Below are positions 9,529 through 61,064 of a DNA stretch of 64,000 nt, one piece after another. The DNA comes from Candidatus Versatilivorator sp. (GTDB taxonomy: Bacteria; Acidobacteriota; Terriglobia; Versatilivoradales; Versatilivoraceae). The stretch covers positions 4,128,001 to 4,192,000 of the forward strand of contig OZ242296.1 of assembly GCA_965207735.1 (NCBI GenBank). Direction: 5' to 3'. Positions within the stretch are counted from its first letter, which is position 1, and the number at the start of each line of letters is the position of its first letter. The notes beneath the pieces were generated by a model. The model worked only from the letters and a program-made list of their open reading frames with translations. It was not told the DNA's origin and did no database searches. The position numbers and the translations under genes were made by a program.

Positions 9529-9679
9529 ATTCGTCCCCATTCGTGTTCATTGGTGGTTCGTCTTCATTTCCAAAACCAAAACGGCTGGCTGTTTATCCTG
9601 TCTATCCTGTGCATCCATGTTCAATCAGTAGAAAACCGGTTTTGCACGACATGGCCCCTATTCCCGACAGGACATGAAG
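9529..9679. repeat. Dispersed repeat fragments: ATTCGT triplet array plus a copy of the 34036-34125 element end
   Basis: ATTCGTCCCC-ATTCGTGTTC-ATTGGTGGTTC at 9529-9559. GTTTATCCTGTCTATCCTGTGCATCCATGTTCAATCAG...TTCCCGACAGGACATG at 9591-9679 aligns with 34036-34125. Confidence 0.8.
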
Positions 9680-9755
9680 ATTCGTTGTTTTACTCTCGTA
9701 CGATCCGGCCCGTCGTCTGGGGCGGGGGCATTGCCATCCTGCGGCGGGATCGGTC

Positions 9756-11147
9756 CTATCGCTTCTTCCAGCGGACGCCTTCCTTGGTGTCTTCGACCAG
9801 GTAACCCAGGTCGAAAATCCGGTCGCGGAGCTCGTCCGCCAGGGCGAAGTCTCGTGCCTTCCGTGCCTGGCCGCGCTGCTCGATCAGGCCTTGAATTTGG
9901 GGGTCCAGACTGGACTGCTCGGACTCCCACAGCGGCAGGACCCGGTTGAGCGTGTCCATGGTCGCCAGAATCGCGGAGCCGTCTCCGTCATGGACCCGGC
10001 CCGCCGCCAGGGCGGTGTTGACCTCCCGCACCCAGTCGAAGATGGCCGCCATGGCCTGAGCCGTGTTGAGGTCCTGATCCATGGCCTCCTCGAACTTCCC
10101 CACAACCGCCTTGCAGCCTGACTGGAGTTCGGGACTGGCGCCCCTCGGCAATGGGTCGGTCTCGATCCGATGCCTGAAGTCCTGCAGCCGCTGGAGCGAA
10201 GCCCCGGCCTGTCTTACCGCGTCGGCGGTGAAGTTGAGCTGACGTTTATAGGGAACGCTCTGCAGCGCATAGCGGACGGCCCCGGGCTGGATTCCCTTCC
10301 CCAGCAGATCCCGTAGCGTAAAGAAGTTGCCCTTGGACTTGGACATCTTCTCGCCATCCACGATGAGATGCTCCCCGTGGACCCAGTAGCGCACGAAAGG
10401 CTTGTCGGTGGCGGCCTCGCTTTGAGCAATCTCGTTCTCATGGTGGGGAAAGATGAGATCCACCGCGCCGCAATGCAGGTCGAAGGTTTCACCCAGGTAT
10501 TTCATGCTCATGGCGGAACATTCGATGTGCCATCCCGGCCGACCGGGACCCAGGGGGGTCTCCCAGCGAGGTTCCCCGTTCTTGGGAGCCTTCCACAAGA
10601 CGAAGTCCCGCGCATCCTGCTTGTCGTACTCGTCCACATCCACCCGGGCGCCCACCTGGATTCCCTCCCGGTCCAGCTTGGCCAGCTTCCCGTAGTCCCC
10701 GAAGGCTTCAATCCGGAAATAGATCGAGCCGTCTTTCTCGTAGGTGTAGCCTCCGGACTGCAGTTGCCGGATCAGGGAAACCATGTCATCGATGTGATCG
10801 GTCGCATGAACGGCCCGGTCGGGTTTCTCGATGCCCAGCCGGTCGCAGTCCTCGAAAAAGGCCCGGGTAAAACGGTCCGTAAACGTTCTGAGCTGAGCGA
10901 CGGTCCGCGCCTCGGAATTCCGGATGGTCTTGTCGTCGACGTCGGTGATGTTCATGACGTGAAAGACCTGAAACCCCTTGTGCCGCAGATAGCGCTTCAG
11001 AACGTCCTGGAAGACGAAGGTCCTCAAGTTTCCGATGTGGACAAAGTCGTACACCGTCGGGCCGCAGGTGTACATTTTCGCCTGGTGGGGCTCCAGCGGT
11101 CGAAAGGGTTCGACCCTCCCGGAGAGGGTGTTGGAAAGCCGCAGCAT
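9756..11147 (-). CDS. cysS: Cysteinyl-tRNA synthetase
   Basis: YTCGPTVY, HIGN, GRPGWHIECSAMS, FPHHENE and KMSKS motifs. Start is 11147 (MLRLSNT) or 11162. Confidence 0.98.
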   Translation of the reverse strand: MLRLSNTLSGRVEPFRPLEPHQAKMYTCGPTVYDFVHIGNLRTFVFQDVLKRYLRHKGFQVFHVMNITDVDDKTIRNSEARTVAQLRTFTDRFTRAFFEDCDRLGIEKPDRAVHATDHIDDMVSLIRQLQSGGYTYEKDGSIYFRIEAFGDYGKLAKLDREGIQVGARVDVDEYDKQDARDFVLWKAPKNGEPRWETPLGPGRPGWHIECSAMSMKYLGETFDLHCGAVDLIFPHHENEIAQSEAATDKPFVRYWVHGEHLIVDGEKMSKSKGNFFTLRDLLGKGIQPGAVRYALQSVPYKRQLNFTADAVRQAGASLQRLQDFRHRIETDPLPRGASPELQSGCKAVVGKFEEAMDQDLNTAQAMAAIFDWVREVNTALAAGRVHDGDGSAILATMDTLNRVLPLWESEQSSLDPQIQGLIEQRGQARKARDFALADELRDRIFDLGYLVEDTKEGVRWKKR

Positions 11148-11234
11148 GGGTGAAATCTCCATCGAGCCGCCGCAGCCCGGCGGCGGCGCAGGCCTGTCCG
11201 GCCAGGACCCCGTCCCGGGTCCATTTCCGCGGCT

Positions 11235-11264
11235 AGAATAGACCGCTGTTCACCGATAAGTCAA
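11235..11264 (-). promoter_or_regulatory. Putative sigma70-type promoter of cysS
   Basis: Minus strand TTGACT-18 nt-TATTCT. Confidence 0.5.
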
Positions 11265-11290
11265 TACAGGCGAGTCTTTTCCAGGGTGCT

Positions 11291-11319
11291 TTGCACTGGT
11301 TGCGGATCCGTGTTACACT
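11291..11319 (+). promoter_or_regulatory. Putative sigma70-type promoter of smc
   Basis: TTGCAC-17 nt-TACACT with extended -10 TG. Confidence 0.55.
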
Positions 11320-11408
11320 CGCCGGGTCAGCATGAGATCCTACCTCTTCTCGACCCTGTCACATCCAATGGCTGCAGTTGCCGGTAAGCCATTGAGGGTG
11401 CCTTCCTA

Positions 11409-14400
11409 TTGCTGAAACTGAAGCAAATCCAGATTCAAGGATTCAAATCCTTCGCCGACAAAACCGAACTGACCTTTGACGGATCCGGCATAGCAGCCAT
11501 TGTGGGACCCAACGGTTGCGGCAAGAGCAACATCTCGGATGCCATCGCCTGGGTATTGGGGGAGCAGAGCGCCCGGACCCTTCGAGGCGGAAGGATGCAG
11601 GACGTCATTTTCAACGGCACCCGCTCCCGGTTGCCCCTGGGTCTGGCCGAGGTCAGCGTGGTTCTGTACGATCCGGAGAAGGCCGAAACCGCGCTTCCCA
11701 CCGCCTCCTCTTCTCCCGAGGCGGCTCCGGCCGGCAATGACCCGGCAGCCGGCCGCGACGGCTCACTTCCCGAGGATGAGGCAAGAATCGAAGGTTCCGG
11801 CCGGCCCACTCCCTTGGAGGCCGGCACGGACTCAGCCTCCGGAAAAAAGAAGGGAAGGCGAACCAAGACGCCGGCCAAACCGGGTGAGCTGGTGGTATCC
11901 CGGCGCCTCTTTCGTTCGGGAGAGAGCGAGTACCTGCTCGACGGACGGAGGGTCCGATTGCGGGACGTTCAGGAGGTGTTTCTGGGAACCGGACTGGGGC
12001 CGGATTCCTATGCGCTGATCGAGCAGGACCGGGTCGGCCTGATTCTCAGCTCCAAACCCTCGGATCGACGGGCCATCATCGAGGAGGCCGCAGGCGTCAC
12101 CAAATTCAAGGTCAAGCGCAAGCTGGCGGCCTCGAAGCTGGAGCAGGCCAGGCAGAACCTGCTCCGTGTCAACGATATCACCGAGGAGGTTTCCCGCCAG
12201 CTGGATGCTCTCAAGCGTCAGGCTGCCAAGGCCCGCCGTTACCGGGAGCTCAGCCTGGAAGCCCGGAATCTCTCCAGGAGCCTGTTCTCCGCCCGGGCCA
12301 GCCGTCTGAAGGCCCAGCTGAGCCAGGTGTCGGAAAAATTCGAGCAATTCCAGGACCAGGTCGATCGGAAACAGCGCTTCATCGAGGAGCGGGAAGCCCA
12401 TTTTCGCCTGGACAACAACACCCTCTTCGAGGCCGAGACCGCATTGAAAGGGCAACGCGAACAGTTGTCCCAGTTGCAGATGGAAAACCAAAGGGACCAA
12501 CAAACGATTCAGCATCGGAAAGACCGGTTCGATCAACTGGGAATCCGGTCTCGCGAAAATGCCTTGGAGCTCCAGCTACTCGCGGAGCAGGAGGAGCAAT
12601 ACCAGGTGCAAGCCCGCGAAAGGCGGCAGGCCCTCCAGGAGGTGACCCGGCAGTTCGACAGGCTGCAGGAGCAGTACGACGCCCGCAATCGGGAACAGGA
12701 ACTACGGCAGAACAAGCTGGGCGACCTGGAAGTCTCGGGAGACCGTCTGCGGTCGGAACAACTGGAATTGCTGAGTCGAGCGACCACCCTTCGCAGCACC
12801 GTCATCCAGTTGGAGGAGCACGAAAAGCAGCTGGGCTTGCAATCCGTTCGCCTGGAAAACGAACGCAAACAGGCATCCCGCGATCGCCGGAACCTGGCGG
12901 ACACCTGCGAGAGTGCCGGCAGCCGGCACACCCGGGAGGAAGCGCGGCTGCGTGAGTTGACCGGCAGGGTCAAGGCACTCTCGGCCGAAGTCAACCGGGA
13001 ACGGGAGCAGCAGGTTCGCGCCCGGCAGCAGGTGGCCGAGAAGCGGGAAGAGCTCAGTGCGCAGGATCAACGGCTCCAGTCAATGAAGGAACTGGCTGCG
13101 CATCATGCCTACAGCGCCGAATCGGTGCGGACACTGTTGTCGGTGGCCGACCGGTCCCGGGGGGCCGAGTTTCGGACCCATGGGATCCTGGCCGATCTGG
13201 TGGAGGTGGATGCCGAGCACGAGCGCACCGTGGAACAGTTTGTGCGTCAGGAGCTCGAATTTCTCCTGGTCGATTCTCCGTCCAATGCGCGGGAAGGCAT
13301 CGATCTGCTGCGCAAGAGCGGCTCCGGCCGATCCACCTTTCTGGTCCCCGGTAACAGCGCCTCCGACTCGGCCGCCGACACTCTTGACGTCCTGATCCAG
13401 GATCTGGTGGCTCGAGACCCGCGGCTCGTTCCGATGAGCCGCGTCATCCGTGTGCCGCCCCGCCATCGCCAGGGGCTTCGCTCCGCCCTCCCCCATCTGT
13501 TTCACAGCCTCATTGCCCCCAGCTATCAGGCAGCCCTGCAGATCGCTCAAGCCCATCCGAAGGTGACGGTGCTGACGCCGCAGGGTGAGGTGTTTCGCGG
13601 GCAGCTCATTTCCGGCGGCAGCGGAGACCAGCGCGGACACCTTTCCCTGAAGCGAGAGATCCGCGAGCTGGACCGCCGGCTCCAATCGGCTCGCCGGGAC
13701 CTACTGTTGCTGGAGGAACGGTTCCAGTCCCTGGACCGGTCGGTGCGAGCCAGTGAGCAGGAGCTGACCCGGGTAAACCGGCAGGTGCAGGAACTGGAAA
13801 AGGAGCTGGTAGGCTCCAACCACCGGCTCGAGACCCTCGCCAATGAGCTCGAACGCCTCAGCCAAAGGGAGCGGGAAGTCTCCACGGAAATCCGGAATTT
13901 GGCTCAAGAGCGGTCGGAAATCGACCAGCGCCGCCTCCAATCCCGATCGGAAATCACGCGGGCCGAAGCGCGCAAGACGGAGGTGGACCAGACCATCGAC
14001 TCGATTCAGGCCGCCTGGCGGCGCTTGAGGGACGAATGGCTGCACCATTCGCAGCAGCTCAGCCAGGTGGGCTCGGAGCTGGCCGCATGCGGCGAGCGCA
14101 AGCTCGCTACCGAGGCCGACCGGGAACGGGTTCAAGCCAACCTGCAAGATTGCCTCCAACGCGGGACCAGGCTGAACGCCCAGCGGGAGGAGTGGGCCGC
14201 CCAAAGCCTCGAGATCCGGAACTCGGTTCGACAACTGGAGGAGACCGTCTTCAATCGAGCAGTTAAACGCGCGTCTCTGGAAGCGGATATCCGGATCAGG
14301 GAAGGTCGGATGGAGACCTCCCGAAAGGGCCAGGCGCAACTGGAAAAAGAGCTGCAGGGGTGGCGCCTGGAACTGGACGAGCTACGGAACCGTAAGACCC

Positions 14401-15173: not shown

Positions 15174-15237
15174 TTCCCCTGCCGCCGGCCGTCTATTCAC
15201 GGGTCCCACCCAGGTTTATAGACGCTACCGACAGGGT

Positions 15238-16312: not shown

Positions 16313-16480
16313 ATGCCGGGAGTTTGCCCTGCAGAGGGCCTGCCCTTGAAGTGTGTTCCCATTAATTAACCGCACAATCGATTGAACAAGGGGCCTCTTC
16401 CCTGTTCATGACAGATTTCAGTCTCTATTCACACGCTGAAGGAAAAAATCCGGCGCCATTGTCACGCCCCCCGGTGAGAA

Positions 16481-17365
16481 ATGCGGGCTAGCTTCTACGA
16501 TCTGCACATTCACTCGAATTACTCCAGCGACGCCGACCATCCCCCCCGGCTTCTCTTTGAAATGGCTTGCGAGGCCGGCCTTGCCGGTCTTGCCATCTCC
16601 GACCACGATACGGTGGCGGCCATGGCCGAAGGGACGCAGTTGGCTCGGGAATTTCCCCTCGAGTTCTACCCGAACGTAGAGATCAGCACCCATTACGGGA
16701 CCCGCAAGTTCCACGTGCTGGCTCCCCTGGTCGATTACCAGTCTGCCGAGTTGCAGTCAAAGCTTCAGGGCTTGGCAGAAGGAAGACGCCAACTGGCGAA
16801 AGCCAGGGTTGACCGGCTTCGGGATCTGGGCTTCGAGATTACCTTTGAGGAGGTCATCCGAGGGTCCGGCAACCCGATACCGACCGGCCCGGCCATCGCT
16901 CAAACCCTTCTGGCAAAACCCGAATCCCAGGAGTCCCCCAGGTTGCACCGCTATCTCCATGGGAATGACTCCGCTCGAGGGGTCATTGCCTTTTATCGAG
17001 ACTTCTTTGCCCGGGGGAAACCCGCCTTTGCCGAGATGAAGAGGCTGGGAACCCTGGAAGCCCTGCAGTTGATCCGCCGGTCCGGGGGTGTTCCCGTGCT
17101 GGCCCACCCGGGGGCTCCCGGCTACGAGGCTGACGAGAATGTTCTGCAGACGTTTGTCGCCCACGGGCTGGCGGGGCTGGAGGTCTATTCCTCCTACCAC
17201 GAGCCCCAGTCCACTCGACGTTTCTCGGACTGGGCGGCGCGCTGGGATCTGGTGAGGACCGCGGGCTCGGATTTTCACGGAAGAGTCAAACCCCACGTCA
17301 GTATTGGCTCCGTCAAAGCCCGCGGCAGAGAGATGATTGAAGAGTTGATGGAAAGGAAGGGCTGA
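16481..17365 (+). CDS. PHP-domain metal-dependent phosphoesterase (TrpH/YciV-like)
   Basis: DLHIHS, ISDHDT, LAHP and GSDFHG metal-binding motifs. Confidence 0.92.
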   Translation: MRASFYDLHIHSNYSSDADHPPRLLFEMACEAGLAGLAISDHDTVAAMAEGTQLAREFPLEFYPNVEISTHYGTRKFHVLAPLVDYQSAELQSKLQGLAEGRRQLAKARVDRLRDLGFEITFEEVIRGSGNPIPTGPAIAQTLLAKPESQESPRLHRYLHGNDSARGVIAFYRDFFARGKPAFAEMKRLGTLEALQLIRRSGGVPVLAHPGAPGYEADENVLQTFVAHGLAGLEVYSSYHEPQSTRRFSDWAARWDLVRTAGSDFHGRVKPHVSIGSVKARGREMIEELMERKG

Positions 17366-18785: not shown

Positions 18786-20408
<1,623 letters not shown>

Positions 20409-20432
20409 CGGCCGGTTCGGAACAATAACCGC

Positions 20433-20468
20433 AAAGCCACCGGAGCCCGCTCCGGTGGCTTTTTTTTT
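20433..20468 (+). terminator. Rho-independent terminator of groESL
   Basis: Stem AGCCACCGGAGC/GCTCCGGTGGCT followed by a T run. Confidence 0.92.
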
Positions 20469-20498
20469 GCGCGACGGAAATACGGAAGTGAACCACGA

Positions 20499-20777
20499 AT
20501 GGACACTAGTGAATACTAGTTTCTCTTGAAAAAAGAAGTGTTTCGAGTCGTCGGTTGCGCGGTGGAAGTTCTCAGCAGGCTAGGGAATTGCTTTGTGGAA
20601 AAGCTATAGGAAATTCACTGGTTTAGGAAAGCGTTGTAGGCACCAAGACGAATGAAGGGATTACCAATTTGGAACGGGGCCAGATTTGTTGACTACCTGA
20701 AGATGACGCAACTCAGAATCGGAATGATCCTTAGTTTCAAGCGTCCACAACTTGAATGGGAGAGGCTGGTTCCATGA
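20499..20777 (+). pseudogene. Degenerate GxxExxY (PD-(D/E)XK-like) protein gene
   Basis: MDTSEY*FLLKKEVFRVVGCAVEVLSRLGNCFVEKL*E...GITNLERGQ...DYLKMTQLRIGMILSFKRPQLEWERLVP*. Both ends match GxxExxY proteins, with stops, frameshifts and a central deletion. AT-richer than its flanks. Confidence 0.85.
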
Positions 20778-20825
20778 CCCTATTCGTGTTTTTTCGTGAT
20801 TCTATTCCCTTAACCGCGGACCGGA

Positions 20826-22217
20826 TTAGAGGTTCAGGAAGATCGAAAATTCAGCCCCTCCCCGGTCGATATTCTTCCATTCCAGCCGGCCGCCGTGGGC
20901 TTCCACGATCCGCTGGGCTATGGGCAAGCCCAAACCCGTCCCGCCGCGCTTGCTCGAATAAAAGAGGTCAAACAGCCGGCCGGATTCCTCCTCCGAGACT
21001 CCGGTACCGCTATCGCGAACCCACACCGCCAAACGGCCCGACTCCCGCCTGGCCCCCATTGAGATCCGGCGCGGTCCGTCCCCACTGGCCAGGACCGATT
21101 CCCTGGCATTGACCAGCAGGTTCATCAAGGCCTGCTGCAACAAGTCGCGGTCTCCCCGAACCTCCAGCATCCCCGGTCCATCCTGCCTCACCAGCTCGAT
21201 TCCTGCGCTGTCACATTCCTTGGCCACAAGCTGGACCACCTGATCCAGCACCCGGGGCAGTGCAACCACCTGGCGATCCAGCTTCAAGGGTTTGGCATAG
21301 ACCAGGAAATTGCGCGCCAACCGCTCCAACCGCCGAATCTCGGACTTGGCCCCGGCCAGTAGTTGGGCCATCTCCTCGGAATGCGCCCGAGACTCGGAAA
21401 CTTCCTCTTCGATCATCTGCAGATTCAGGTTGATGGCGCTCAAAGGGTTCCGGATCTCATGGGCCAACCCGCTGGCCAGCATCCCCAGCACTGCCAGCCG
21501 GTCGGCCGTGTGGGCTTCGGCCTCGATCAGCTGGGCTCGCTTGAGCAGCCAGCGCACATAGAACATGGCCACCAGCAGAAGCGCCAGCACCACCGAGGAG
21601 GCCATTAGAACCTGCTGGTTGATCCGGCTCTGATCTACAGCCACCCGGCTGGCAATCAGGGTGTTGTCGAAACCGAAATGGATAAGCAGCCTCAATTGAC
21701 CCTTGGATACCACCGGTTCGACCCAGTCGGTGATGCGCTCCCCCGGATTGCTGACCGAAGCGATTTCCTGCCTTGCCCTGGAGGACAGAATGAGGTCCGT
21801 AAAGTGGCTCTGCTCCAGTTCCCTTCCCATCTGCAAGCGGCGCCAAAGCAGCTCTCCCCGGGGATGCTGGGCAAAAACGTAGACGACCTGGTCGTCGCCG
21901 GCCAATAACTCCTCCAGATACCCTTCCATGTGCTGCCGGCGGCGAAGTTCATCGGCAGGATCGGTGCCCGGCAGCTCCAGATCGAGGAGACGGATCTGAT
22001 TCTCGATCCGATCCTGCAAATCGTCGCGCAATGCCTCCATTACAAGCTCCACCCGCTCGCTTGCCCAGCGGTTGGCCAAATCGATCAGCGAAAAGGCGAT
22101 GGCCCCGATCACCACCAGAAAGAGAGCGGAGCTGATAAAGAGGTGGCGCCTGAAGATCGGCTTGCCCTTGACGCGGGTTCGAAAAGACGTCCGATCTGTG
22201 CTGGAGGGGTCGGCCAC
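20826..22217 (-). CDS. Membrane sensor histidine kinase (NtrB/HupT-like core), no adjacent response regulator
   Basis: Two TM segments; LAHEIRNPL, NLLVNA, DSGTG and GGTGLGL motifs. Confidence 0.92.
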   Translation of the reverse strand: MADPSSTDRTSFRTRVKGKPIFRRHLFISSALFLVVIGAIAFSLIDLANRWASERVELVMEALRDDLQDRIENQIRLLDLELPGTDPADELRRRQHMEGYLEELLAGDDQVVYVFAQHPRGELLWRRLQMGRELEQSHFTDLILSSRARQEIASVSNPGERITDWVEPVVSKGQLRLLIHFGFDNTLIASRVAVDQSRINQQVLMASSVVLALLLVAMFYVRWLLKRAQLIEAEAHTADRLAVLGMLASGLAHEIRNPLSAINLNLQMIEEEVSESRAHSEEMAQLLAGAKSEIRRLERLARNFLVYAKPLKLDRQVVALPRVLDQVVQLVAKECDSAGIELVRQDGPGMLEVRGDRDLLQQALMNLLVNARESVLASGDGPRRISMGARRESGRLAVWVRDSGTGVSEEESGRLFDLFYSSKRGGTGLGLPIAQRIVEAHGGRLEWKNIDRGGAEFSIFLNL

Positions 22218-22271
22218 GGCAGGTCACGGAGCGGGCGGCTCCTTCAGAGGAAAAACAGCCGATTGTCTCTG

Positions 22272-22419
22272 GAGCCTTTTGCAAGATTCGCAACGGGGTA
22301 GGTCATTTTGCCGGCAAACGTGATGTTCTGCCTTTTTCAATATCGGGTGCGACTTGGTGAAAAATGCTGTCTAAGCACAAAAGCCACAAAACGAATTTAT
22401 CGTATGCCTTCTCGAGTAA
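22272..22419 (-). mobile_element. MITE-like fragment with a GxxExxY remnant, homologous to about 60705-60854
   Basis: Starts GAGCCTTTTGCAAGATTCGCAAC, matching the reverse complement of 60831-60854. Contains AAGCACAAAAGCCACAAAACGA, and the minus strand reads LLEKAYD-KFVL. Confidence 0.6.
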
Positions 22420-29543: not shown

Positions 29544-29588
29544 GACCGTTGACCTCCCGGCTGGTGCCCCCGACATAGGAATACGTGT

Positions 29589-29768
29589 CTGAAACAAACG
29601 AAAAAAGACAAAAGAAAAAGAGGAAAAAGATTTATCCACGAAGAGGCACGAAGGACCACGAAGGGCCACTAAGGCGCTGAGGTTAACCGCGACGGGGTAC
29701 CAAGGTCGCGAAAGGATAATCGATTTCCGATTGTTTCACTCTCGTATGATCCGCCCGGCAGGGCGGGG
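29589..29768. repeat. Dispersed intergenic repeat (about 150-180 bp), copy 1; copy 2 at 49378-49521
   Basis: Shared CTGAAACAAA..A-rich..TTATCCACGAAG..CACTAAGGCG..CGCGACGGG.TACCAAGGTCGCGAA..CGATTTC.GATTGTTTCACTCTCGTATGATCCGCCCG. Confidence 0.9.
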
Positions 29769-29916
29769 ACGGAACTTGTCTCAAACGCCGGGGACTATAC
29801 CACAGACACGGGGCAACCGGGGATCAGAGGCACTAGCCCGCAGTTGTCCATGCCGCCGGTCTATCAAGACAAGCACAGCAGCTGGGCATCCCCGCTCTAC
29901 CGGCAAATTGCGAGCT

Positions 29917-30040: not shown

Positions 30041-30415
30041 ATGGATCGAAGAAAATTCACTCAGGTCATGGGAGCCGCCGTGGCCGGCATGGTGGCGGGT
30101 TCCAAAGCGGTCAGTCAAACGGATTCGCTGTTGTTGGCCGATGAAGACAAGAAGTCCAAGCACGTCTGCAAGGGCCGTAACCAGTGCAAGGGCCAGGGCG
30201 GTTGCGCCAGCGGCGACAACGGCTGCGCCGGCAAGAATTCCTGCAAGGGCAAGGGCGGCTGCGCCACCGTGGCCAAGCACGCCTGCAAGGGTCAGAACGA
30301 GTGCAAGGGCCAGGGCGGCTGCGGCAGCGGCGACAACGGCTGCGCCGGCAAGAATTCCTGCAAGGGCAAGGGCGGCTGCGCCGTTCCCGTTCACGGGACC
30401 GAAAAGAAGAAATAG
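30041..30415 (+). CDS. Cys-rich repeat RiPP precursor (bufferin BufA2-like) with twin-arginine-like leader
   Basis: RBS AAGGAGG; leader MDRRKFTQVMGAAVAGMVAGS; four CxGxNxCKGxGGC units (12 Cys); directly upstream of DUF692. Confidence 0.85.
   Translation: MDRRKFTQVMGAAVAGMVAGSKAVSQTDSLLLADEDKKSKHVCKGRNQCKGQGGCASGDNGCAGKNSCKGKGGCATVAKHACKGQNECKGQGGCGSGDNGCAGKNSCKGKGGCAVPVHGTEKKK
30158..30382 (+). repeat. 117-bp (39-aa) tandem duplication within the precursor
   Basis: AAGCAC at 30158 and 30275 begin near-identical units. Confidence 0.95.
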
Positions 30416-30534
30416 CCTGACTCTCCAGGACCGGCCGGTCTCCCGACGTTTCCGACCGCGGGGTGCAGCCCACGACTCCGCGGCCGGGAAGCGGGATGGC
30501 GGCCGAGTCCGTGCGTCGGACCAGGAGGTCCCTT

Positions 30535-31395
30535 ATGGGCAGGAACCGATGGAATTTGCCCGACCTGGGGTTCGGAATCGGTCTCCGCACCGTCCACTAC
30601 AGCTACATTCTCGCCAACCACCCTCCCATCGACTGGTTCGAAATCCTGTCGGAGAACTACATGGATACGGGAGGACGGCCGCTTTACGTGCTGGACCAGG
30701 TGGCGGAACGCTACCCGGTCGTGCTCCACGGCGTTTCCATGTCGGTGGGAAGCACCGACCCCTTGAACCTGGATTATCTGAAGAAACTGAAGGCCTTGGC
30801 CGACCGTACCAGGGCCCACTGGGTCTCCGACCACCTCTGCTGGACCGGCGTGAGCGGCATCAACGTCCATGACCTGCTGCCGATGCCCTACACCGACGAA
30901 TCCCTGCGCTACACCATCGAACGGGTGAAGGCGGTTTCCGAGATCCTGGAGCGCCCCCTGGTGCTGGAGAATCCCTCGACCTACCTGGAGTTCGGGACCT
31001 CGACCTGGAGCGAAGTCGACTTTCTGTCCACCCTGGCCCAGGAGGCCGACTGCGGGATACTTCTGGACGTGAACAACGTCTACGTCAGCTGCTTCAACCA
31101 CGGCCTGGACCCGGACGCCTTCATCGACCGCGTCCCGGCCGACCGTGTGGTTCAGTATCACCTGGCCGGACACACCCACAAGGGAACCCACATTCTGGAC
31201 ACCCACAGCGATTACGTCATCGACGAAGTCTGGTCCCTCTATCGACGCTCCTGCCGGAGAACCGGCGGGGTGGCAACCCTGCTGGAGTGGGACGAGAACA
31301 TTCCCAGCTTCGAGGTGGTTCACGCCGAAGCCTTGAAAGCCCGCCGGCACCGCGGCCTTCCCGAGCCGGACCACAAGAGAGCCTATGGCACCTGA
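30535..31395 (+). CDS. DUF692 family multinuclear non-heme iron oxidative enzyme (MNIO; BufB/MbnB/HvfB-like)
   Basis: HGVSMS, SDHLCW, HDLLP, LENP, LLDVNNVYV, HLAGH, DTH and LLEWD motifs; RBS AGGAGG before ATG 30535. Confidence 0.95.
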   Translation: MGRNRWNLPDLGFGIGLRTVHYSYILANHPPIDWFEILSENYMDTGGRPLYVLDQVAERYPVVLHGVSMSVGSTDPLNLDYLKKLKALADRTRAHWVSDHLCWTGVSGINVHDLLPMPYTDESLRYTIERVKAVSEILERPLVLENPSTYLEFGTSTWSEVDFLSTLAQEADCGILLDVNNVYVSCFNHGLDPDAFIDRVPADRVVQYHLAGHTHKGTHILDTHSDYVIDEVWSLYRRSCRRTGGVATLLEWDENIPSFEVVHAEALKARRHRGLPEPDHKRAYGT

Positions 31396-32589: not shown

Positions 32590-32837
32590 TCTCCGACTCC
32601 CCCTCAAGGGGGGAGTAATAGGAGCGTCGTATGCTGGCCTCGAGTATCACTCCCCCCTTGAGGGGGAGTCGGAGAGACAAGGGCGGAGCCCGCAGTCGAT
32701 CCGGAGGGGGGCCAACGCGGCGTCCCTTTGGAGAAGCCCGCTGTCGATCCGGAGGGGGGCAAGCGCGGCGCCCCTTGAGTGGCTACCAAGAGGGCGCAGC
32801 CCGCTGTCGAGCCGGAGGGGGGCAGACGCGGCGTCCC
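32590..32837. repeat. REP-like hairpin followed by three 40-bp direct repeats
   Basis: TCTCCGACTCCCCCTCAAGGGGGGAGT and ACTCCCCCCTTGAGGGGGAGTCGGAGA are perfect inverted arms. AGCCCGC.GTCGA.CCGGAGGGGGGC...CGCGGCG.CCC units start at 32687, 32735 and 32798. Confidence 0.88.
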
Positions 32838-33802: not shown

Positions 33803-33848
33803 GTTGTTATGACAGTCTTCGGGCGCCGGACTACCCGCTCTTTCTTTT

Positions 33849-34065
33849 ACATGGATGGACAGGATACACAGGATTATTTGTAGAGTAGTTTCAGCGTCTT
33901 GAGTTCAACCATCGCCTGTGTTCCAACACAGATTCTCCCAAACCCGTTATCAGGCTCATCGATGCCTTCAAACACGCACCCAATCATCGGGCGAGTCCGC
34001 TTAGGGTGGCTAAGGGTGGCGGCGCGTCTCGTGCCGTTTATCCTGTTTATCCTGTGCATCCATGT
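33849..34065 (-). pseudogene. Internally deleted GxxExxY remnant bounded by 26-bp inverted repeats
   Basis: Arms ACATGGATGGACAGGATACACAGGAT (33849-33874) and ATCCTGTTTATCCTGTGCATCCATGT (34040-34065). Interior reads LSHPKRTRPMIGCVFEGIDEPDNGF/ESVLE/MVELKTLK. Confidence 0.72.
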
Positions 34066-34339
34066 TCAATCAGATAGAAAAACGGTTTAACCGGACAGGA
34101 TCCTAGTTCCCGACAGGTCATGGAGTCAATTGCTTCGCTCACGCCGGTCACCGTCAACCTCAATCTCAAGCGGCGATGGCGTCGGACTGTCGTTTTGGCT
34201 CGCGAGCGGATAAGCTTCATGGGACATTCACGGGTATTCGGCGACCCTGCCGGGCTCCGGACTTGTATCAAAGGTTCAGGGCTTTTGGAAACTGGAAAGG
34301 CCGAGGAATTTCGAGAACCGACGCGGGAGGATTTTCATT

Positions 34340-36446: not shown

Positions 36447-39056
36447 TCAGACCACGATATTGACCAGTTTTCCCGGAACATAAATCAGCCGTTTTGGGGT
36501 TTTGCCGTTCAAGTGGCGCTGCACCGACTCCTGGCTCAAAGCCGCCTCCCGAGCCTGTGCTTCGGTAAGGTCGACCGGAAGGTTCAGTCGCCCCCGGACC
36601 TTGCCGTTGACCTGAAGCACCAGCGTGATTTCCTCCTCGGCCGCCAGCAGGCGGTCGGCCTGGGGCCAGGGCTGCTGGTGGATCGAGTAGGGACGCCCTT
36701 TCAAGGCCCAGAGCTCCTCCGCCATAAAGGGAGCAATCGGCGCCACCATCAGGAGCAGCGCATCGGTGGCCTCTACCCAGGCCTCCCGGCCAACCGGCCG
36801 CTTGACGGCGTCCTGAAGCGCATTGGTGAACTCCATGAGCGACGAAATCACGGTGTTGAAACGAAATCCCTCGATGTCGCTCGATACCTTGAGCAAGGTC
36901 TTGTGCATCCAGCGGCGCAGATCCCGGTCCGGCTTCCGGGTCCGCGAGGAGGAAGGCTCCTGGGGGGGCGGTCGCAAAATCACCTCCCAGGCTCGGCGCA
37001 GCCAACGAAAGGTACCTGAGAGACCGTTGGTGTTCCAGGGCGTGGACATTTCGAAATCGCTGATGAACATCTCGTAGGCGCGCAAGGCGTCGGCGCCCCA
37101 GGCTTCCACCATTTCGTCCGGTGTGATGACGTTCCCCCGGCTCTTGGACATCTTTTCTCCGTCCTGACCCAAAATCATCCCCTGATTCCGCAGGGACTTG
37201 AAGGGCTCGGCAAAGGGCAGGTGGCCCAGGTCGTAGAGCGCCTTGGTCCAGAAGCGGGCGTATAGCAGGTGCATGACCGCGTGCTCTGCTCCTCCCACGT
37301 ACACGTCCACCGGCAGCCAGTAGTCCACTTCCTTGCGATCGAAGGCGGCCCGAGCATCGCGGGGACTCACGAAGCGCAGAAAGTACCAGGAGGAGCAGGC
37401 GAATGTTCCCATGGTGTCGGTCTCACGGCGTCCCCGGATGCCTCCGGGCAGGGATACCTGGACGAACTCGGAAATGGCTGCCAGGGGCGACTCTCCGCTG
37501 CCGGTGGGCTCGTAGTGGCGAACCTCCGGCAGCCGCACCGGAAGATCGGCCGAAGCCACGGGCACCTCGCCGTCGGAGGTGTGAACGACGGGAATCGGGG
37601 TGCCCCAGTAGCGCTGGCGGCTGATCCCCCAATCGCGCAGCTTGTAATGGACGCTGGACCTGCCCCTACCGGACTTCTCCAACCAGTCGGTGACCCTGTC
37701 GACGGCCTGGCTGGTGGGGGTGCCGTCGAAGGAGCCGGACCGGCTCATGACCCCCTCACCAGTCCAGGCCTCCTCCATGGTGTCGGAACGCAGCGGTTCA
37801 TCCCGCCCTGCGGGTTGGATCACCACCCGGATCTCCAGGCCGTGCTGTCGGGCGAACTCGAAGTCTCTCTGGTCGTGGGCCGGGACCGCCATGATGGCGC
37901 CGGTTCCATACCCCATCAGCACATAATCCGCCACCCAGATCGGGATCGCTTCACCGTTGACCGGATTGGTGGCACGGGATCCCAGGAACACGCCCGTCTT
38001 GGCCCGTCCCTGGGCCGTACGATCCAGATCGCTCTTGCCCTGGACCTGCTGCAGATAGGTATCGACCTCTCGAGCCGAGGAGGGGGTGGTGAGGGCGGGC
38101 ACCAGAGGATGCTCCGGCGCCAGCACCATAAAAGTAGCTCCCCAAAGCGTATCGGGGCGGGTGGTGAACACCTTCAATGGCCCGGCGGCGGTGGAAAAAC
38201 CGACTTCGGCCCCCCGACTGCGTCCGATCCAGTTGCGCTGCATCAGCTTGATGCTCTCCGGCCAGTCCAGGCCCTCCAGGTCGGCCAACAGCCGGTCGGC
38301 GTAGGCCGTGATTCGAAAGAACCACTGCATCAGCCGTTTCTTCTCGACCAACGCCCCGCTTCGCCAGCCGCGCCCGTCCACCACCTCTTCGTTGGCCAGC
38401 ACTGTCTTTTCCACCGGGTCCCAGTTCACCGTGGATGCCCCGCGATAGGCCAGCCGATAGTGGCTCAGATAGTCCTTTCTCTCCGTGACCGGCAATTGCC
38501 TCCAGGCCTCGGCGGTCATGGCCGGCGCTCCGGAAATGCCACCGCTGCCGCGGGTCGCCAGTTCCTCCTCCAGGCCGGAGATGGGACAGGCCTTCTGCAG
38601 CCGCGGGTCGTACCAGGAATGGTAGAGCTGCAGAAAAACCCACTGAGTCCAACGATAGTATTCGGGCTGGGAGGAGTTGATCTCCCGGCTCCAGTCGAAG
38701 GAGATGCCCAGCAGCCGCATCTGCCGCTTGTAGTTGGCGGCAAAGCGGGCGATGAGCTTTGCCGGGTTGGTCTTCTGACGGATAGCCGCGTTTTCCGCGG
38801 GAAGACCGAAGGCATCCCAACCCATGGGATGGAGCACGTTCTCGCCCCGCATGCGGTAGTAGCGGCTCAACACGTCGGTGGGAACGTAGTTCCGGCAGTG
38901 GCCCACGCTGAGTCCGTCCCCCGAAGGATAGGGAAAGAAATCCAGCACGTACCTCTTGGGACGACCGTCGGCCGGAGCGGTCCGATAGAGCCCGTCCCGT
39001 TCCCAGCGGTCGGCCCACTTGGCTTCTATTCGGTCGGGAGTATATTTAGCCCGCAT
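36447..39056 (-). CDS. leuS: Leucyl-tRNA synthetase
   Basis: FPYPSG, MGWDAFGLPAENAA, editing motifs FTTRPDT and GTGAIMAVPAHDQRD, SRQRYWG, KMSKS. Confidence 0.98.
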   Translation of the reverse strand: MRAKYTPDRIEAKWADRWERDGLYRTAPADGRPKRYVLDFFPYPSGDGLSVGHCRNYVPTDVLSRYYRMRGENVLHPMGWDAFGLPAENAAIRQKTNPAKLIARFAANYKRQMRLLGISFDWSREINSSQPEYYRWTQWVFLQLYHSWYDPRLQKACPISGLEEELATRGSGGISGAPAMTAEAWRQLPVTERKDYLSHYRLAYRGASTVNWDPVEKTVLANEEVVDGRGWRSGALVEKKRLMQWFFRITAYADRLLADLEGLDWPESIKLMQRNWIGRSRGAEVGFSTAAGPLKVFTTRPDTLWGATFMVLAPEHPLVPALTTPSSAREVDTYLQQVQGKSDLDRTAQGRAKTGVFLGSRATNPVNGEAIPIWVADYVLMGYGTGAIMAVPAHDQRDFEFARQHGLEIRVVIQPAGRDEPLRSDTMEEAWTGEGVMSRSGSFDGTPTSQAVDRVTDWLEKSGRGRSSVHYKLRDWGISRQRYWGTPIPVVHTSDGEVPVASADLPVRLPEVRHYEPTGSGESPLAAISEFVQVSLPGGIRGRRETDTMGTFACSSWYFLRFVSPRDARAAFDRKEVDYWLPVDVYVGGAEHAVMHLLYARFWTKALYDLGHLPFAEPFKSLRNQGMILGQDGEKMSKSRGNVITPDEMVEAWGADALRAYEMFISDFEMSTPWNTNGLSGTFRWLRRAWEVILRPPPQEPSSSRTRKPDRDLRRWMHKTLLKVSSDIEGFRFNTVISSLMEFTNALQDAVKRPVGREAWVEATDALLLMVAPIAPFMAEELWALKGRPYSIHQQPWPQADRLLAAEEEITLVLQVNGKVRGRLNLPVDLTEAQAREAALSQESVQRHLNGKTPKRLIYVPGKLVNIVV

Positions 39057-39442
39057 TTCTCACCGGGTCGCCGGGCGCATTGGGAAAGACATTGATTTTC
39101 AGGGCCATGTGGGTGTTGTTTCGAGGACATGCTGACCAGACTGCTCTGAGCGTGCCCTGGATTTTCCTTTTCCCGTGCCCTTGTCACGCCCCGCGGTGAG
39201 AAATGCGGACTCGTGGTGATGATCGCAGGTCACTGAGGGGGGATACGCCTGAAATCCTTCGTCTGGCTTGAGTTTCAGCCGATTCACCAAACCTTCGGCG
39301 ATGTTAGCAAAGGGCCGGAAGAGGGGTCAAGCTCGGGTCCGGCTCCGGGCCGCGCAAAATGGGGTTGCCCACGAGGGTCGAACGTTCCATAATGAGCCAC
39401 CGTTTCCGGTCCGTTAAAACCCTCCAAAAACAGGTGCAGACC

Positions 39443-49362: not shown

Positions 49363-49377
49363 CGCCTGCCTGCCTGC

Positions 49378-49521
49378 CTGAAACAAAAGAAAAAAGAGTT
49401 ATCCACGAAGGGACACTAAGGCGTTGAGGTCAATCGCGACGGGATACCAAGGTCGCGAAGGGATGGTCGATTTCTGATTGTTTCACTCTCGTATGATCCG
49501 CCCGTCAAGGCGGCGGCGGGA
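49378..49521. repeat. Dispersed intergenic repeat, copy 2 of 29589-29768
   Basis: Direct alignment with copy 1 including the identical GATTGTTTCACTCTCGTATGATCCGCCCG. It has fewer CACGAAG units. Confidence 0.9.
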
Positions 49522-49562
49522 CTCTCCACTCTCCACTCTCCACTATTCACTCTCCACTTGCC
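49521..49562. repeat. Heptamer tandem repeat (ACTCTCC)n
   Basis: ACTCTCC x3, ACTATTC, ACTCTCC, ACTTGCC; overlaps the stop of the FG-GAP gene. Confidence 0.85.
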
Positions 49563-54662: not shown

Positions 54663-54669
54663 AGTCCAC

Positions 54670-55631: not shown

Positions 55632-55659
55632 CGGACGACGGCCGGGTTCGGGTCCCAGT

Positions 55660-56046: not shown

Positions 56047-56629
56047 CGGAGTTCTCCTCCAGCAACCGGCCGGCCATGGCTGAAACCTCGGGGAGGGTGT
56101 TGGCTCCCACAAACTTTCCGGCCAGCCTGCCCTGGGGATCGATGACAAAGAAGGTGGGCAGGGTGGCCACGTCACCCAATGGGTCCAGGTCGACCAGCGT
56201 ACGCAGTAGAAAGGCGGGAGGGGGGTGGGGAACGGCCACCCTGTAATTGATCTCGGGATGCCTCTCCAGGAAAGGATCCAGATCTTCCCAGCCTCCACGG
56301 TCCACACTCAACCCCAACAGATCGAAAGGCGCTGCCCTAAACCTCTCTGCCAGCGCCACCAGACGCGGAATGCCCTCAACGCAGGGAGGACACCAACTGG
56401 CCCAGACGTCCACCACCACCACCCGCCCGGAAAAGTCACCGATATCCTCGACTCCGCGCCGGGTTTCAAAGTGAAATCCGCCGACATCCGGACGGGAGGC
56501 GGGGTCTGCATAACGCCCGGCCATCCGGCCGCTCCGGATCCGTGGCGCCACCTGAAAGTGGTAGTAGGCAAGGGCCGAGCCCAGCAGGATGATTCCAGCC
56601 ACTCCCAATGCCAGCGGCAACCGTTTCAT
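56039..56629 (-). CDS. TlpA/ResA-like membrane-anchored thiol-disulfide oxidoreductase
   Basis: N-terminal TM; WASWCPPC; cis-Pro LPTFFVID; ATGA overlap with the upstream gene. Confidence 0.9.
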   Translation of the reverse strand: MKRLPLALGVAGIILLGSALAYYHFQVAPRIRSGRMAGRYADPASRPDVGGFHFETRRGVEDIGDFSGRVVVVDVWASWCPPCVEGIPRLVALAERFRAAPFDLLGLSVDRGGWEDLDPFLERHPEINYRVAVPHPPPAFLLRTLVDLDPLGDVATLPTFFVIDPQGRLAGKFVGANTLPEVSAMAGRLLEENSDG

Positions 56630-58035: not shown

Positions 58036-58062
58036 TGCCTTATTGGCCTTGTTTTGCCCGCT

Positions 58063-59190
58063 TCAACTTCCCGCCAGAGCCGCCAGCAAGCGGTCCACGT
58101 CCCGGCTGTCGTTGTAGAGGTGTCCGGAAATCCGCACCCGGCCCAGCTCGCCCCAGACCAGGATTCCCCGGCTCCTCAGATGATCATGTATCTTCCCGGC
58201 TTCTTCAGACAGAAAGCAGGTGTTTCCGGAACGAGCCGAGGGCTCCCCGGGCGTGATTACGGTGTGTCCCAGCCGCTCCAGGCCGGCCGCGATCCTTGCC
58301 GACAACTGCCGGGCATGTTCCTGAATGCGATCCATCCCCGTGCTCAGCAGCACATCCAGAGCATTGTTCAAGAACATCACCGACACCAGGCTGGGGTTGC
58401 CGGGCTCCATCTTCTCCGGCATGGGCCTGATCGGAACCTCCGGGAGAACTTCCATGCGTTCCTCCGGCCAGGCCACCAGGTTGCGCCAGCCGAAGCAGGT
58501 TGCGGCCGTGCGACTCTCGGCCCTGGGGCTCAGATAGCAGGGAGCCACCCCATGGGTGGCCAGCATCCACTTGTAGGAACTGCTCACGCACAGGTCGGTC
58601 ACGCCTGCCGGAACCTCCACCACGCCCGAGCCATGGGTGGCGTCCACGGCCAGCAGCACACCTCGCCGAGAGGCCCCCTCCGCCAGGCGCTGCAAGTCCA
58701 GGCACTGGCCGGTGTAGAAGCTCACCTGGCTAACGGCCAGCACCCGGGTGCGGGCGTCCATGGCCCCCAGCAGATCCTCCTCCCTGACCTTCCAGCGGCG
58801 ATGGGGAACCCGTCGGACCGCCACGCCCTCCGCCTCCAGCGATTTCCAGGCGTAGCCCACCGAAGGAAACTCGAGGCTGGTGGTCACGATGTTGTCCCCG
58901 GCACTCCAATCGAGACCTCGCGCCAGCCAGTTCATCCCCTCTGCCGACGAGGGCATGAAGGCCACCCGGTCGGCTGGGACGTTCCACAACCGGGCCACCT
59001 TCTTCCGGCAGGCCTCGGTCCGGGCGGCCACCTCCCCCCGCCCTTCGTACCCCCGACTCTTCAAGCGGGCGAAATCGGCGTAGACCGACTGGTGGCTCTT
59101 CATCCAGGGAGCCTCCCCACCCGTGCAGAGGTGGGTCACTCCTTCCAGTCCGACGAAGGCATCCGGAGAAATGAGCGGTTCGATCTTCAT
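58063..59190 (-). CDS. Class V PLP-dependent aminotransferase/C-S lyase family protein
   Basis: EFPS, VDATH, SSYKW (PLP Lys) and RISGHLYN motifs. Confidence 0.9.
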   Translation of the reverse strand: MKIEPLISPDAFVGLEGVTHLCTGGEAPWMKSHQSVYADFARLKSRGYEGRGEVAARTEACRKKVARLWNVPADRVAFMPSSAEGMNWLARGLDWSAGDNIVTTSLEFPSVGYAWKSLEAEGVAVRRVPHRRWKVREEDLLGAMDARTRVLAVSQVSFYTGQCLDLQRLAEGASRRGVLLAVDATHGSGVVEVPAGVTDLCVSSSYKWMLATHGVAPCYLSPRAESRTAATCFGWRNLVAWPEERMEVLPEVPIRPMPEKMEPGNPSLVSVMFLNNALDVLLSTGMDRIQEHARQLSARIAAGLERLGHTVITPGEPSARSGNTCFLSEEAGKIHDHLRSRGILVWGELGRVRISGHLYNDSRDVDRLLAALAGS

Positions 59191-59264
59191 TGGGGTCTCA
59201 GTGGATCAGGGTGGCAACGGCCGCCGGAATGGCCGCAAGCGCCGCACCCGTGGGCGCCTGCGAA

Positions 59265-60320
59265 TCAACTCCAACTGCTTTTGAGAAACTCGATCCAGTT
59301 TCCGTGCATGACCCTGGCGACGTCCGCATCGGCGTAGCCCCGCTTGCGGAGGATCTCGGGAATGCGCTGCAGGTCGGCGATGGTGTCCATGTCGCAGGGA
59401 GCCTGCTCTTTCCCATAGCCCCCATCCAGATCGGTCCCGATCCCCGCGTGGTTGCAGTTGCCCGCTACCTGGCAGATGTGGTCCATGTGGTCGGCCACCG
59501 TCTCCAGCGTGATGCCGCTGTTGTCGATCGCCTGATGGTCCCACAGGGGTGAGAGCATCCAGTCGTCCAGGGCCACCCCGATAACCCCGGACCTCTCCAC
59601 GATGGCCCGAATCTGGCTGTCCTCGAACTGACGGTCATGGTCGCAGAGAGCCCGGCAACAGTTGTGGGTGGCCAGCACCCGGCCCCCGAAGCCGTCCAGG
59701 GCCTCCCAGAAGGCCTGATCGGCCAGATGGGTCAGGTCCAGCAGCATGCCGGCTGCATCCAGAGCTTTCAGAAGGGGACGCCCGCGGGGCGTCAAGCCCC
59801 CGGGAGCCTGGGTCCCGTGGGAATAACTGCTGACGCCGTAGTGGCACAGGCTCACCACCCGGAGGCCTTCATCCCACCACTCCGGAACCTGCTCGGGAGA
59901 GACGATGCCGTCGGCTCCTTCCATGGTGAGCACAAACCCCAGGGGGGTGGAACTGGGGTCCCGTTCCCAATCCGTCAAATGAGCCTCCAAGCCCTGGCGA
60001 TCCCGGATCTGACGGAGTACTCCCTTGGACTCCATCAGGCGATAGTAGGCCAGCTCGCCGCGGCACCTGGCATAGGCGATGTCCTGGTTTCGCACCCCGG
60101 AGAAGCGTTTTCCCATGGATGCGACCCGGCAGGCAACGGTAACGAAAAAGAGCCCGATCTCTCCCCGGCGCTGCTCCTCGTAGTTGACCATGTTGAGGCC
60201 CCGGCCCTTTTGGGCCATGCCGGCTTCCGATTCCCGGATCCCGGCAATGCTCTGCAACAGGTCCCGGTTCCATTCAAGGGCATTGTGAGCAATATCGATG
60301 TGCGAATCGACAATCAGCAT
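59265..60320 (-). CDS. Membrane (renal) dipeptidase family M19
   Basis: DSHID, MEGAD, DLTH, ATHN and IGTDLDG motifs. Confidence 0.93.
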   Translation of the reverse strand: MLIVDSHIDIAHNALEWNRDLLQSIAGIRESEAGMAQKGRGLNMVNYEEQRRGEIGLFFVTVACRVASMGKRFSGVRNQDIAYARCRGELAYYRLMESKGVLRQIRDRQGLEAHLTDWERDPSSTPLGFVLTMEGADGIVSPEQVPEWWDEGLRVVSLCHYGVSSYSHGTQAPGGLTPRGRPLLKALDAAGMLLDLTHLADQAFWEALDGFGGRVLATHNCCRALCDHDRQFEDSQIRAIVERSGVIGVALDDWMLSPLWDHQAIDNSGITLETVADHMDHICQVAGNCNHAGIGTDLDGGYGKEQAPCDMDTIADLQRIPEILRKRGYADADVARVMHGNWIEFLKSSWS

Positions 60321-60518
60321 CTGGTAAAAACCCTCCCTTGCAGTATCTGACTCTCGGTCAGTTCCAAGCCCGAAGTCAAGACCCTTGGGCGGGTCAAGCG
60401 TAGCACCGGCGCCGCGCCAATTCCATCACTTTGTGGAACGTCGGCCTGGGAAGGAACATGGGTGCCTCCGCCATTTTTGAAACCATTGAGGGTCGTCCAC
60501 GGAGGCCCAAAAAAAGTA

Positions 60519-60558
60519 ATCCACCAAGCAGCACGAAGGACGACGAAGAGCCACAAAG
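60519..60558. repeat. CACGAAG-type tandem array related to 29634-29673
   Basis: ATCCACCAAGCAGCACGAAGGACGACGAAGAGCCACAAAG vs ATCCACGAAGAGGCACGAAGGACCACGAAGGGCCACTAAG. Confidence 0.65.
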
Positions 60559-60616
60559 GGCTTGGAGAAAGCTCCAGAGGGATCGGCCAAGGGTCGGGAA
60601 AAAGAAAACTAACATG

Positions 60617-61064
60617 GAGGCGTTTGCAAAATTCGGCAGCGGGACCTTTGCCGGGAATGGCCACAAAAGGCACAAAAACACAAAAAGAACCATCGGATGG
60701 GCACGTCTCGAAATCAAGAAACTCGTTTTGTGCCTTTTGTGCTTTTTGTGGTTTCTGTTGTCTCTTGTGCTTATCGTGGTGAATGCTGGAGCCTGCAGCA
60801 CATCATCCTTGCCGCCTCAATGTCATTCCCGATTGCGATATTTGCAAAAGGCTCATCATTAACATGGATGCACAGGATAACCAGGACGGGACGCTGCTGC
60901 ACGAGAAGCCGGCTCCGGCAATGATCGTGTGCGGATTTGCGGATGCTCAGATTACAAGCCTGCCGTTTCCTGAAAAAATCCTGTGCATCCTGTGCATCCA
61001 TGTGAATCAAAACCTGTTCCGAGCCTCCATAAAACGGTTGGCTGCGGAATTTTGCAAAAGGCTC
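60617..61064. mobile_element. Composite MITE-like element(s) with TTTGCAAAAGGCTC-type ends carrying two GxxExxY remnants
   Basis: GAGGCGTTTGCAAAATTCGGCAGC (60617-60640) matches the reverse complement of 61041-61064 at 21/24. An extra end lies at 60841-60854. Inner inverted arrays span 60661-60751 and 60862-61003. Confidence 0.7.

Follow-up and report, generated by a model that had tools for sequence, protein, structure and literature searches.

Decayed GxxExxY gene-plus-arms cassettes, probably once self-spreading, and their carriage by miniature IS110- and DDE-type elements in a Candidatus Versatilivorator genome

We analyzed a 64,000-nucleotide stretch of the genome of Candidatus Versatilivorator sp. 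(assembly GCA_965207735.1, contig OZ242296.1, positions 4,128,001 to 4,192,000; hereafter "the window", numbered from its first letter), for which an original prediction, made from the letters alone, had proposed a mobile system of GxxExxY genes bounded by inverted arrays of short repeat units. The host genome is complete, with a size of 5.26 Mb and a GC content of 62%. We find that the window holds remnants of cassettes in which a small GxxExxY gene lies between two inverted arms, each an array of such units. These are probably the decayed copies of cassettes that once spread by themselves, many of the dead copies now lying inside miniature elements of the IS110 and DDE types that probably multiplied them. 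The gene-plus-arms unit itself, which is found in many phyla, likely spreads by an undescribed route.

The loci named in the original prediction, and their arrays, were all located at the positions it had given. Three array flavours had been recognized, here labelled A (CACGAAT), B (ACAGGAT) and C (CACAAAA); all three are present, and the list lacked a fourth, D, which occurs at 29634, 49401 and 60519. Across the genome, arrays of at least 2 units number 564 (33 of flavour A, 180 of B, 89 of C and 262 of D), versus 1 in a chunk-shuffled genome. To assign the loci to GxxExxY genes we relied on DNA alignment, since profile searches of the remnants gave little: among 5 open peptides, taken from four loci, one matched TIGR04256 below its cut-off (20640-20774, E 8e-5, 23 bits versus 35) and none matched Pfam. 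In the alignments, the remnants are 79% to 93% identical to intact sister-species genes of matching flavour, which bears out their reading as GxxExxY pieces. Thus, 20487-20809 aligned to flavour A (266 of 322 positions identical, score 363), 33841-34065 and 60863-61010 to flavour B (169/214, score 135, and 120/148, score 103), and 60693-60752 and 22331-22398 to flavour C (53/60, score 92, and 63/68, score 107), where the best of 100 shuffles scored 27 to 35, and every remnant scored much higher with the flavour to which it belongs than with any of the others. The 22.4-kb locus has a single array, as had been noted, which is the right arm, but its gene is reduced to the last few codons, and the rest is non-coding flank. 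The proposal that the left array supplies the start codon holds for flavour A and mostly for B, where an in-frame ATG was found in 8/8 and 12/17 intact genes, respectively, and fails for flavours D (0/6) and E (0/4); the ATG of "MATKGTK", one of the proposed starts, is in frame with the gene in just 1 of 6 intact flavour-C genes of the genus. Arrays that had been taken to stand alone are instead parts of larger repeated modules. No intact GxxExxY gene was found in this genome, the best profile matches being halves. Some DNA of the 347-nt coding core is retained at 55 loci (31 of flavour B, 21 of C, 2 of D and 1 of A), and the longest remnant of it, at 239 nt, lies at window positions 20532-20772.

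A GxxExxY profile match above the cut-off was present in 26 of 31 genomes searched, the host genome included, and intact homologues of the remnants reach 146 bits against TIGR04256 (cut-off 35) and 144 bits against PF13366 (cut-off 22). Inverted arms were called when the similarity between upstream and downstream flanks exceeded the 99th percentile of shuffles. By this threshold, 67 of 87 intact genes with sufficient flank (10 of 97 candidates were dropped) carry the inverted arrays that the original prediction expected of them; similarity in direct orientation also passed in 33 genes, for which tandem neighbours and shared units are our explanation. The two arms of one gene had a median similarity score of 40, versus 19 for cross pairs. 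In a larger set of 128 intact genes, scored with strict flavour patterns, both arms were called for 45 genes, one arm for 34 and none for 49, and the flavours of the two arms agreed in all 45 genes with both called. Outside the genus set, arms were called in 14 named phyla.

The suggestion that array flavour tracks protein phylogeny was supported on a tree of 79 rows and 115 columns, biased to flavour B, from which the 49 of 128 genes without an arm call were excluded: flavour requires 12 changes, versus a mean of 44.4 when shuffled, phylum requires 23, and one clade has flavour B in 23 of its 24 rows while spanning seven phyla. Considering that kin share labels, that the alignment is short and that the sample is biased, this result shows that the arms travel with the gene, and not that the two co-evolve. 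In the protein, E24, D63 and K75 are invariant, and E73, Q87 and Y91 nearly so, including a QxxxY motif, which marks RecB/Cas4-type nucleases. The structure of an intact protein was modelled with a pLDDT (predicted local distance difference test) of 95, and its closest structural match was the Cas4-type SSO0001 (Z 8.3), followed by Hjc, AddA/AdnA and lambda exonuclease; Foldseek gave no match at E up to 0.001, and a sequence search of the PDB none at E up to 10. By its modelled fold and its conserved active-site residues, the intact protein belongs to the PD-(D/E)XK superfamily. Purifying selection is indicated by the ratio of non-synonymous to synonymous substitution rates, which is 0.12-0.19 among members of the genus and falls to 0.06 in comparisons across phyla. 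No relative was found in viral contigs using two single proteins, from which absence from phages does not follow.

Presence and absence between relatives, the polymorphism expected of a mobile element, were also observed: sites are filled or empty, and intact, gene-less and empty alleles all occur at two loci. Flanking genes in the window were named after Pfam, while gspE-gspF, kinase-xerD, cyclase-TPR and pilM-pilN are labels read off the sequence. At gspE-gspF, compared across 13 genomes, 6 have an intact flavour-B gene with gene-less pieces beside it, 3 (the host genome included) have gene-less copies only, 3 have no copy (two of these with a gap of 5-6 bp) and 1 has an unrelated tandem repeat. 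At kinase-xerD, intact flavour-A genes are present in 3 of 12 genomes, a left arm or fragment in 4 and nothing in 5. The flavour-D cassette at cyclase-TPR has one orientation in 4 genomes and the opposite one in 2, and at pilM-pilN an intact flavour-C gene occurs in two genomes, its place being taken in the host genome by a DUF559 gene framed by repeats of its own. In two other genera, three intact units stand in tandem (2 arrays), a unit starting at the left arm and extending 25-35 bp beyond the right arm. The number of GxxExxY matches per genome goes up to 25, and presence within the genus is patchy.

Two further observations were made at such sites. The DUF559 nuclease gene with its own REP-like (repetitive extragenic palindrome-like) repeats, found at G000:C1:2216865-2218330 and with the same repeat at window positions 32597-32668, is a second nuclease-plus-repeat system in the same hot spots. 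In the closest relative of the host genome (G002), at the site that corresponds to G000:C1:2317199, a GC-rich hairpin has received an intact flavour-A gene together with a D arm and a leader of 170 bp, and half of the hairpin is duplicated (12-15 bp) far outside the arms; this leader is common to intact flavour-A genes at three other loci.

The edges of insertions were mapped by comparison with G002, of which 1.2 Mb was laid against the host genome in an alignment, 0.79 Mb of it in unique blocks, at only about 93% identity over the aligned blocks. This alignment contains 269 collinear gaps, 67 with arrays, and yielded 20 clean filled/empty events. The comparison does not support the idea that the units which moved in this genome end at the arrays: none of the 20 clean events is bounded by arm ends on both sides, a single edge is near an arm in two, and no target duplication of constant length was found at arm edges. 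In 9 of the 20, an edge lies within 15 nt of an end motif of the IS110 or DDE insertion sequences (ISs) described below, and in 3 both edges do. Homology among copies extends well beyond the arrays, with at least 30 nt of outer flank shared with a distant copy at 173/237 arm ends of flavour B, 89/97 of C, 269/361 of D and 34/65 of A. An IS end lies no more than 250 bp away for 37/65 arm ends of flavour A, 139/237 of B, 79/97 of C and 261/361 of D, which amounts to 57-81% across flavours, versus 4.5% of random positions. Because the units do not end at the arrays and many remnants are carried by IS frames, neither copy number nor polymorphism in this genome is evidence for mobilization by GxxExxY proteins. 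The view of the remnants as non-autonomous derivatives is right in that interiors are deleted while arms are kept; the partnership with the nuclease is unsupported, and in the host genome they look like passengers.

One frame is provided by an IS110 element with 10 near-full copies in the host genome (for example G000:C1:4078686-4080380), which is also found in 5 of 13 sister genomes. Its 463-aa protein has the domains PF01548 and PF02371 and scores 217 bits against NF033542 (cut-off 140), and behind each of the 10 copies stands a look-alike of the element's own right end. Units shorter than 1 kb with both IS110 ends number 164, of which 139 contain arrays, mostly of flavour D. Two miniature elements in the window, both on the minus strand, have both ends of the intact IS110 of the same genome: one of 191 bp at 29584..29774, whose cargo is a flavour-D right arm (29633-29678), and one of 149 bp at 49373..49521, with a short flavour-D arm (49401-49420). 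G002 is empty at the exact point of the first, which makes it a precise empty allele, and is rearranged at the site of the second; another clean empty-site case for an IS110 miniature is at G000:C1:4457094. Head-to-tail joints, such as a circular intermediate would give, were seen in contigs and are also expected from chromosomal tandem copies. As bridge-RNA guides, only 9-mer matches with 2 mismatches were found, and the left end folds no better than shuffles.

Around these elements we also noted that IS110 and its miniatures are strung together in tandem, that IS110 has a sub-terminal inverted repeat of 8 bp and a 256-nt non-coding left end, and that a reverse-transcriptase-like frame (group II intron-like by reading) is inserted between IS110 ends at G000:C1:409274-411427 and in roughly four more copies. 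Window positions 30141-30872, a short way downstream of the 29.6-kb element, encode a small secreted-looking protein with three cysteine-rich repeats, a scanned frame without a Pfam match. A tandem heptamer run adjoins the 49.4-kb element at 49521-49560; similar runs flank other G002 insertions, and they may be the arms of another gene-plus-repeat family.

The other frame is provided by a 1487-bp DDE insertion sequence (DUF772 and DDE_Tnp_1), which is IS1182-like but falls below all NCBIfam family cut-offs. It has 43 copies at 99.9-100% identity (for example G000:C1:4036357-4037843), a recent burst, and 18-bp terminal repeats, with 4-bp duplications visible at most copies (as read from the listing, rather than counted). 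Short pairs of these terminal repeats occur 21 times, 15 times with C or B plus C arrays, and 7 pairs (5 with arrays) show the 4-bp duplication. One short pair, without this duplication, bounds a 448-bp composite on the plus strand at 60617..61064, in which terminal repeats at 60617-60634, at an inner position ending at 60854 and at an outer position ending at 61064 enclose a flavour-C remnant (about 60656-60752) and a flavour-B remnant (60862-61003). Near-identical C plus B composites are present at four other loci, two of them with 4-bp duplications. A truncated flavour-C module on the minus strand (22272..22398) comprises the last codons, the right arm (22374-22398) and non-coding flank, its lone end at 22272-22289 being a single terminal repeat of the DDE element. 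Both the composite and this module therefore carry the terminal inverted repeats of an intact parent, the 22.4-kb copy at one end only. In G002, further modules continue at the 22.4-kb site and terminate at an IS110 end. An assembly artefact was considered for 19869-22339 and rejected, as a single contig of run X1 spans the interval with no differences (X1 may be the source of the assembly, and the check is then not independent). Several copies of the DDE element were also seen lodged within arms of GxxExxY cassettes or in the IS110 miniature's A-rich flank.

The remaining copies in the window are diverse in their surroundings. Directly behind a groEL terminator-like hairpin (20433..20462, plus strand) lies a pseudogenized flavour-A cassette (20470..20834, plus strand), a single copy outside both IS frames, with its left arm at 20490-20520, a start codon at 20499, a stop at 20775-20777 and its right arm at about 20782-20803. 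It is damaged by two internal stops and a 105-nt deletion, and is missing in 4 relatives (which have a 57-58 bp site) and in bridging contigs of 3 runs; just behind the hairpin, 5 other species have different repeat mosaics. A flavour-B remnant on the minus strand (33846..34125; left arm 34040-34065, right arm 33849-33874) retains three coding patches and includes a 60-bp leader that in other copies comes after the IS110 left end, and is absent or replaced in relatives. At 60507..60583 (minus strand), a flavour-D right arm with some inner flank is identical to an intact D cassette at 59 of 76 positions, and no IS end motif stands beside it. Finally, a repeat mosaic at 9185..9729 (minus strand) consists of an IS110 left end (9685-9729), a B left arm (9595-9620), an A left arm (9529-9559) and palindromes, with a REP-like palindrome pair at 9297-9430 after the flavour-A arm; it is common to G002, and at other loci the same module chain stops at an IS110 right end. 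That palindrome pair and a hairpin module at 9092-9182 represent two more REP-like families of 70-115 copies each, chained to the flavour-A arm within 9092-9457. Window positions 16471-16487 and 39050-39066 are ends of an IS1380-like element (G000:C1:4100431-4102145; family name read from the protein start), whose end motif has 146 matches in the genome and an end fragment of which is incorporated into the flavour-C module.

We combine these results in a reading with two processes. In the first, the 125-150 aa protein would bind the units of its own arms, spaced by 9-10 nt, and nick or cut near the outer edge of an arm, upon which copies of the unit would be placed between genes through recombination or repair by the host, leaving behind tandem copies, inversions, and insertions that lack a target duplication of fixed length; on balance, we lean slightly towards such recognition, cutting and copying. 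In the second, IS110 inserts at sites resembling its own right end, by which neighbouring DNA enclosed between the IS110 left end and the right-end look-alike would move as a miniature element, and the DDE element inserts into A/T-rich arms and flanks, where pairs of its terminal repeats would move the DNA in between; that the IS110 and DDE transposases moved the framed remnants in trans is very probable. Such hitchhiking is local and secondary, and not the origin of the cassette, since beyond the genus these IS ends are near a single intact gene of 98, against 6 of 30 inside it. A bolder version of the first process, which we offer tentatively and at a little less than an even chance, is that of a minimal mobile element of about 450-500 bp that would combine a stand-alone Cas4/RecB-like nuclease, a subfamily-specific array and host repair with no transposase, and whose relics and intact nuclease genes would be recycled as IS110 cargo.

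Several points weigh against this two-process reading. Arm-to-arm insertion with clean edges is missing from the 20 clean events, 11 of which also lack an IS end motif at either edge, and insertion edges are blurred by the distance to the closest relative. Among 88 paired flavour-B copies, 11 have unique flanks on both sides; 4 of these were checked in relatives and comprise a larger insertion (about 220 bp larger than the arms), a replacement (right edge at an arm end, no duplication) and two ambiguous cases. These copies fit older, repair-mediated insertion or recombination between repeats, without proving either. Given the 11 events, the 11 copies and the unframed 20.5-kb copy, carriage by insertion sequences fails to explain every copy, and the proximity of arms to IS ends is partly due to both kinds of repeat accumulating in the same intergenic hot spots. 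Vertical inheritance fits the intact genes at loci shared by several species as well as mobility does. Flavours C, D and F are each spread over more than one clade, on a tree that is short and B-biased; structural Z-scores of about 8 are middling and single out no function; and the enzyme is a predicted nuclease, with no GxxExxY activity found in print.

Three alternatives were weighed against the reading of decayed, self-spreading cassettes. If the cassette never moved by itself, the protein being a host-useful nuclease of repair or defence, with operators or mRNA stems as arms and spread by transfer and capture, then purifying selection, the loci shared across species, the IS ends near 6 of 30 intact genus genes and the IS-bounded nature of the clearest moves in the host genome would all be accounted for. 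We nevertheless regard this as unlikely, considering the up to 25 matches per genome, the patchy presence in the genus, the tandem intact units and the gene-less minis clustering around intact genes; moreover, mirror-image arms on both sides are hard to reconcile with operators, and 97 of 98 intact genes outside the genus have their arms and none of these IS ends.

Less probable again is that GxxExxY proteins are transposases, with the arrays as terminal inverted repeats and the remnants as their own minis, mobilized in trans before the gene was lost. Retained arms with deleted interiors, families with identical deletions at many loci, the 11 of 88 paired B copies with unique flanks and the coincidence of the right edge of the 33.8-kb unit with an arm end would suit a transposase; the 20 clean events, none ending at both arms, the outer flank of at least 30 nt that most arm ends share with distant copies, the lack of a constant target duplication at arms and a genome without an intact gene would not. 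We consider it very improbable that the arms act as RNA, transcript pairing looping the gene out much as in 23S rRNA intervening sequences, rendering insertion in operons harmless and allowing movement via RNA. Long arm-to-arm stems were indeed predicted in 2 of 3 folded remnants (z -5.35 and -5.06), and one locus has the cassette between co-oriented genes that are 5-6 bp apart, but folding is expected of any inverted repeat, the third remnant, whose arms have decayed, does not exceed shuffles in stability (z 0.44), the genes around the copies may be convergent, divergent or co-oriented, both orientations of the copies occur, and Rfam gave no match in the window.

The reading of self-spreading cassettes matters in that GxxExxY is a very common family whose function is listed as unknown. 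The link between flavour and clade names a candidate cognate DNA substrate for each subfamily, which opens GxxExxY function to a direct test in which four protein-array pairs of a single genus control for specificity. Should the protein mobilize the cassette, this would be a repeat-spreading system with an enzyme superfamily distinct from RAYT and DDE transposases. As known insertion sequences carry the repeats here, copy number and presence/absence should not be credited to the nuclease before edges are mapped. In addition, an IS110 that targets its own end and has 164 small cargo units offers a natural set on which to test the tolerance of an IS110 recombinase for cargo and for end degeneracy.

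Classical MITEs (miniature inverted-repeat transposable elements) of DDE insertion sequences, with an IS1182/IS5-like parent, resemble the DDE-framed units in their 18-bp terminal repeats of a multi-copy parent, and 7 of the 21 short pairs show 4-bp duplications; unlike in these MITEs, the interiors described here are captured foreign repeat DNA rather than deleted transposase, and the parent is below the NCBIfam cut-offs. The 23S rRNA intervening sequences are protein-coding inserts inside an rRNA gene, whereas all copies in the window lie between protein genes.

For the IS110 units, hitchhiking is of a known kind, given the precedent of MITEPpu9, a miniature with the ends of its IS110-family parent ISPpu9, as described in PMC12288879. 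Both cases involve short elements that share their ends with an intact IS110, occur singly or in tandem with this parent, and carry unrelated cargo; they differ in that the cargo here consists of GxxExxY arms or remnants and REP-like pieces, in the number of units (164 versus 8) and in the insertion of our parent element at look-alikes of its own right end. For the cassette, no description was found in searches that covered the main text of openly available papers. PDDEXK_3 is tabulated in PMC3424549 with the function "Unknown" and multiple transfers, in a table row that gives no flanking repeats, mobility or mechanism, and a passage of 10.1101/2021.01.26.428298 mentions GxxExxY incidentally. 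The gene-plus-arms unit is apparently undescribed, and analogous to REPtrons with a different enzyme. As described in PMC3733652 and PMC6006769, REPtrons (RAYT with REP/REPIN) and TIRtrons (TIRYT) are Y1 transposase systems, which share with the cassette a single small gene inside its own inverted repeats, located at shared loci, and gene-less repeat copies that cluster beside the gene and disperse in intergenic DNA. Unlike in those systems, the predicted enzyme of the cassette is of the PD-(D/E)XK type (PDDEXK_3) and not an HUH Y1 transposase, an arm consists of 2-3 non-palindromic units that pair only with the opposite arm, and the gene-less copies retain pieces of coding sequence.

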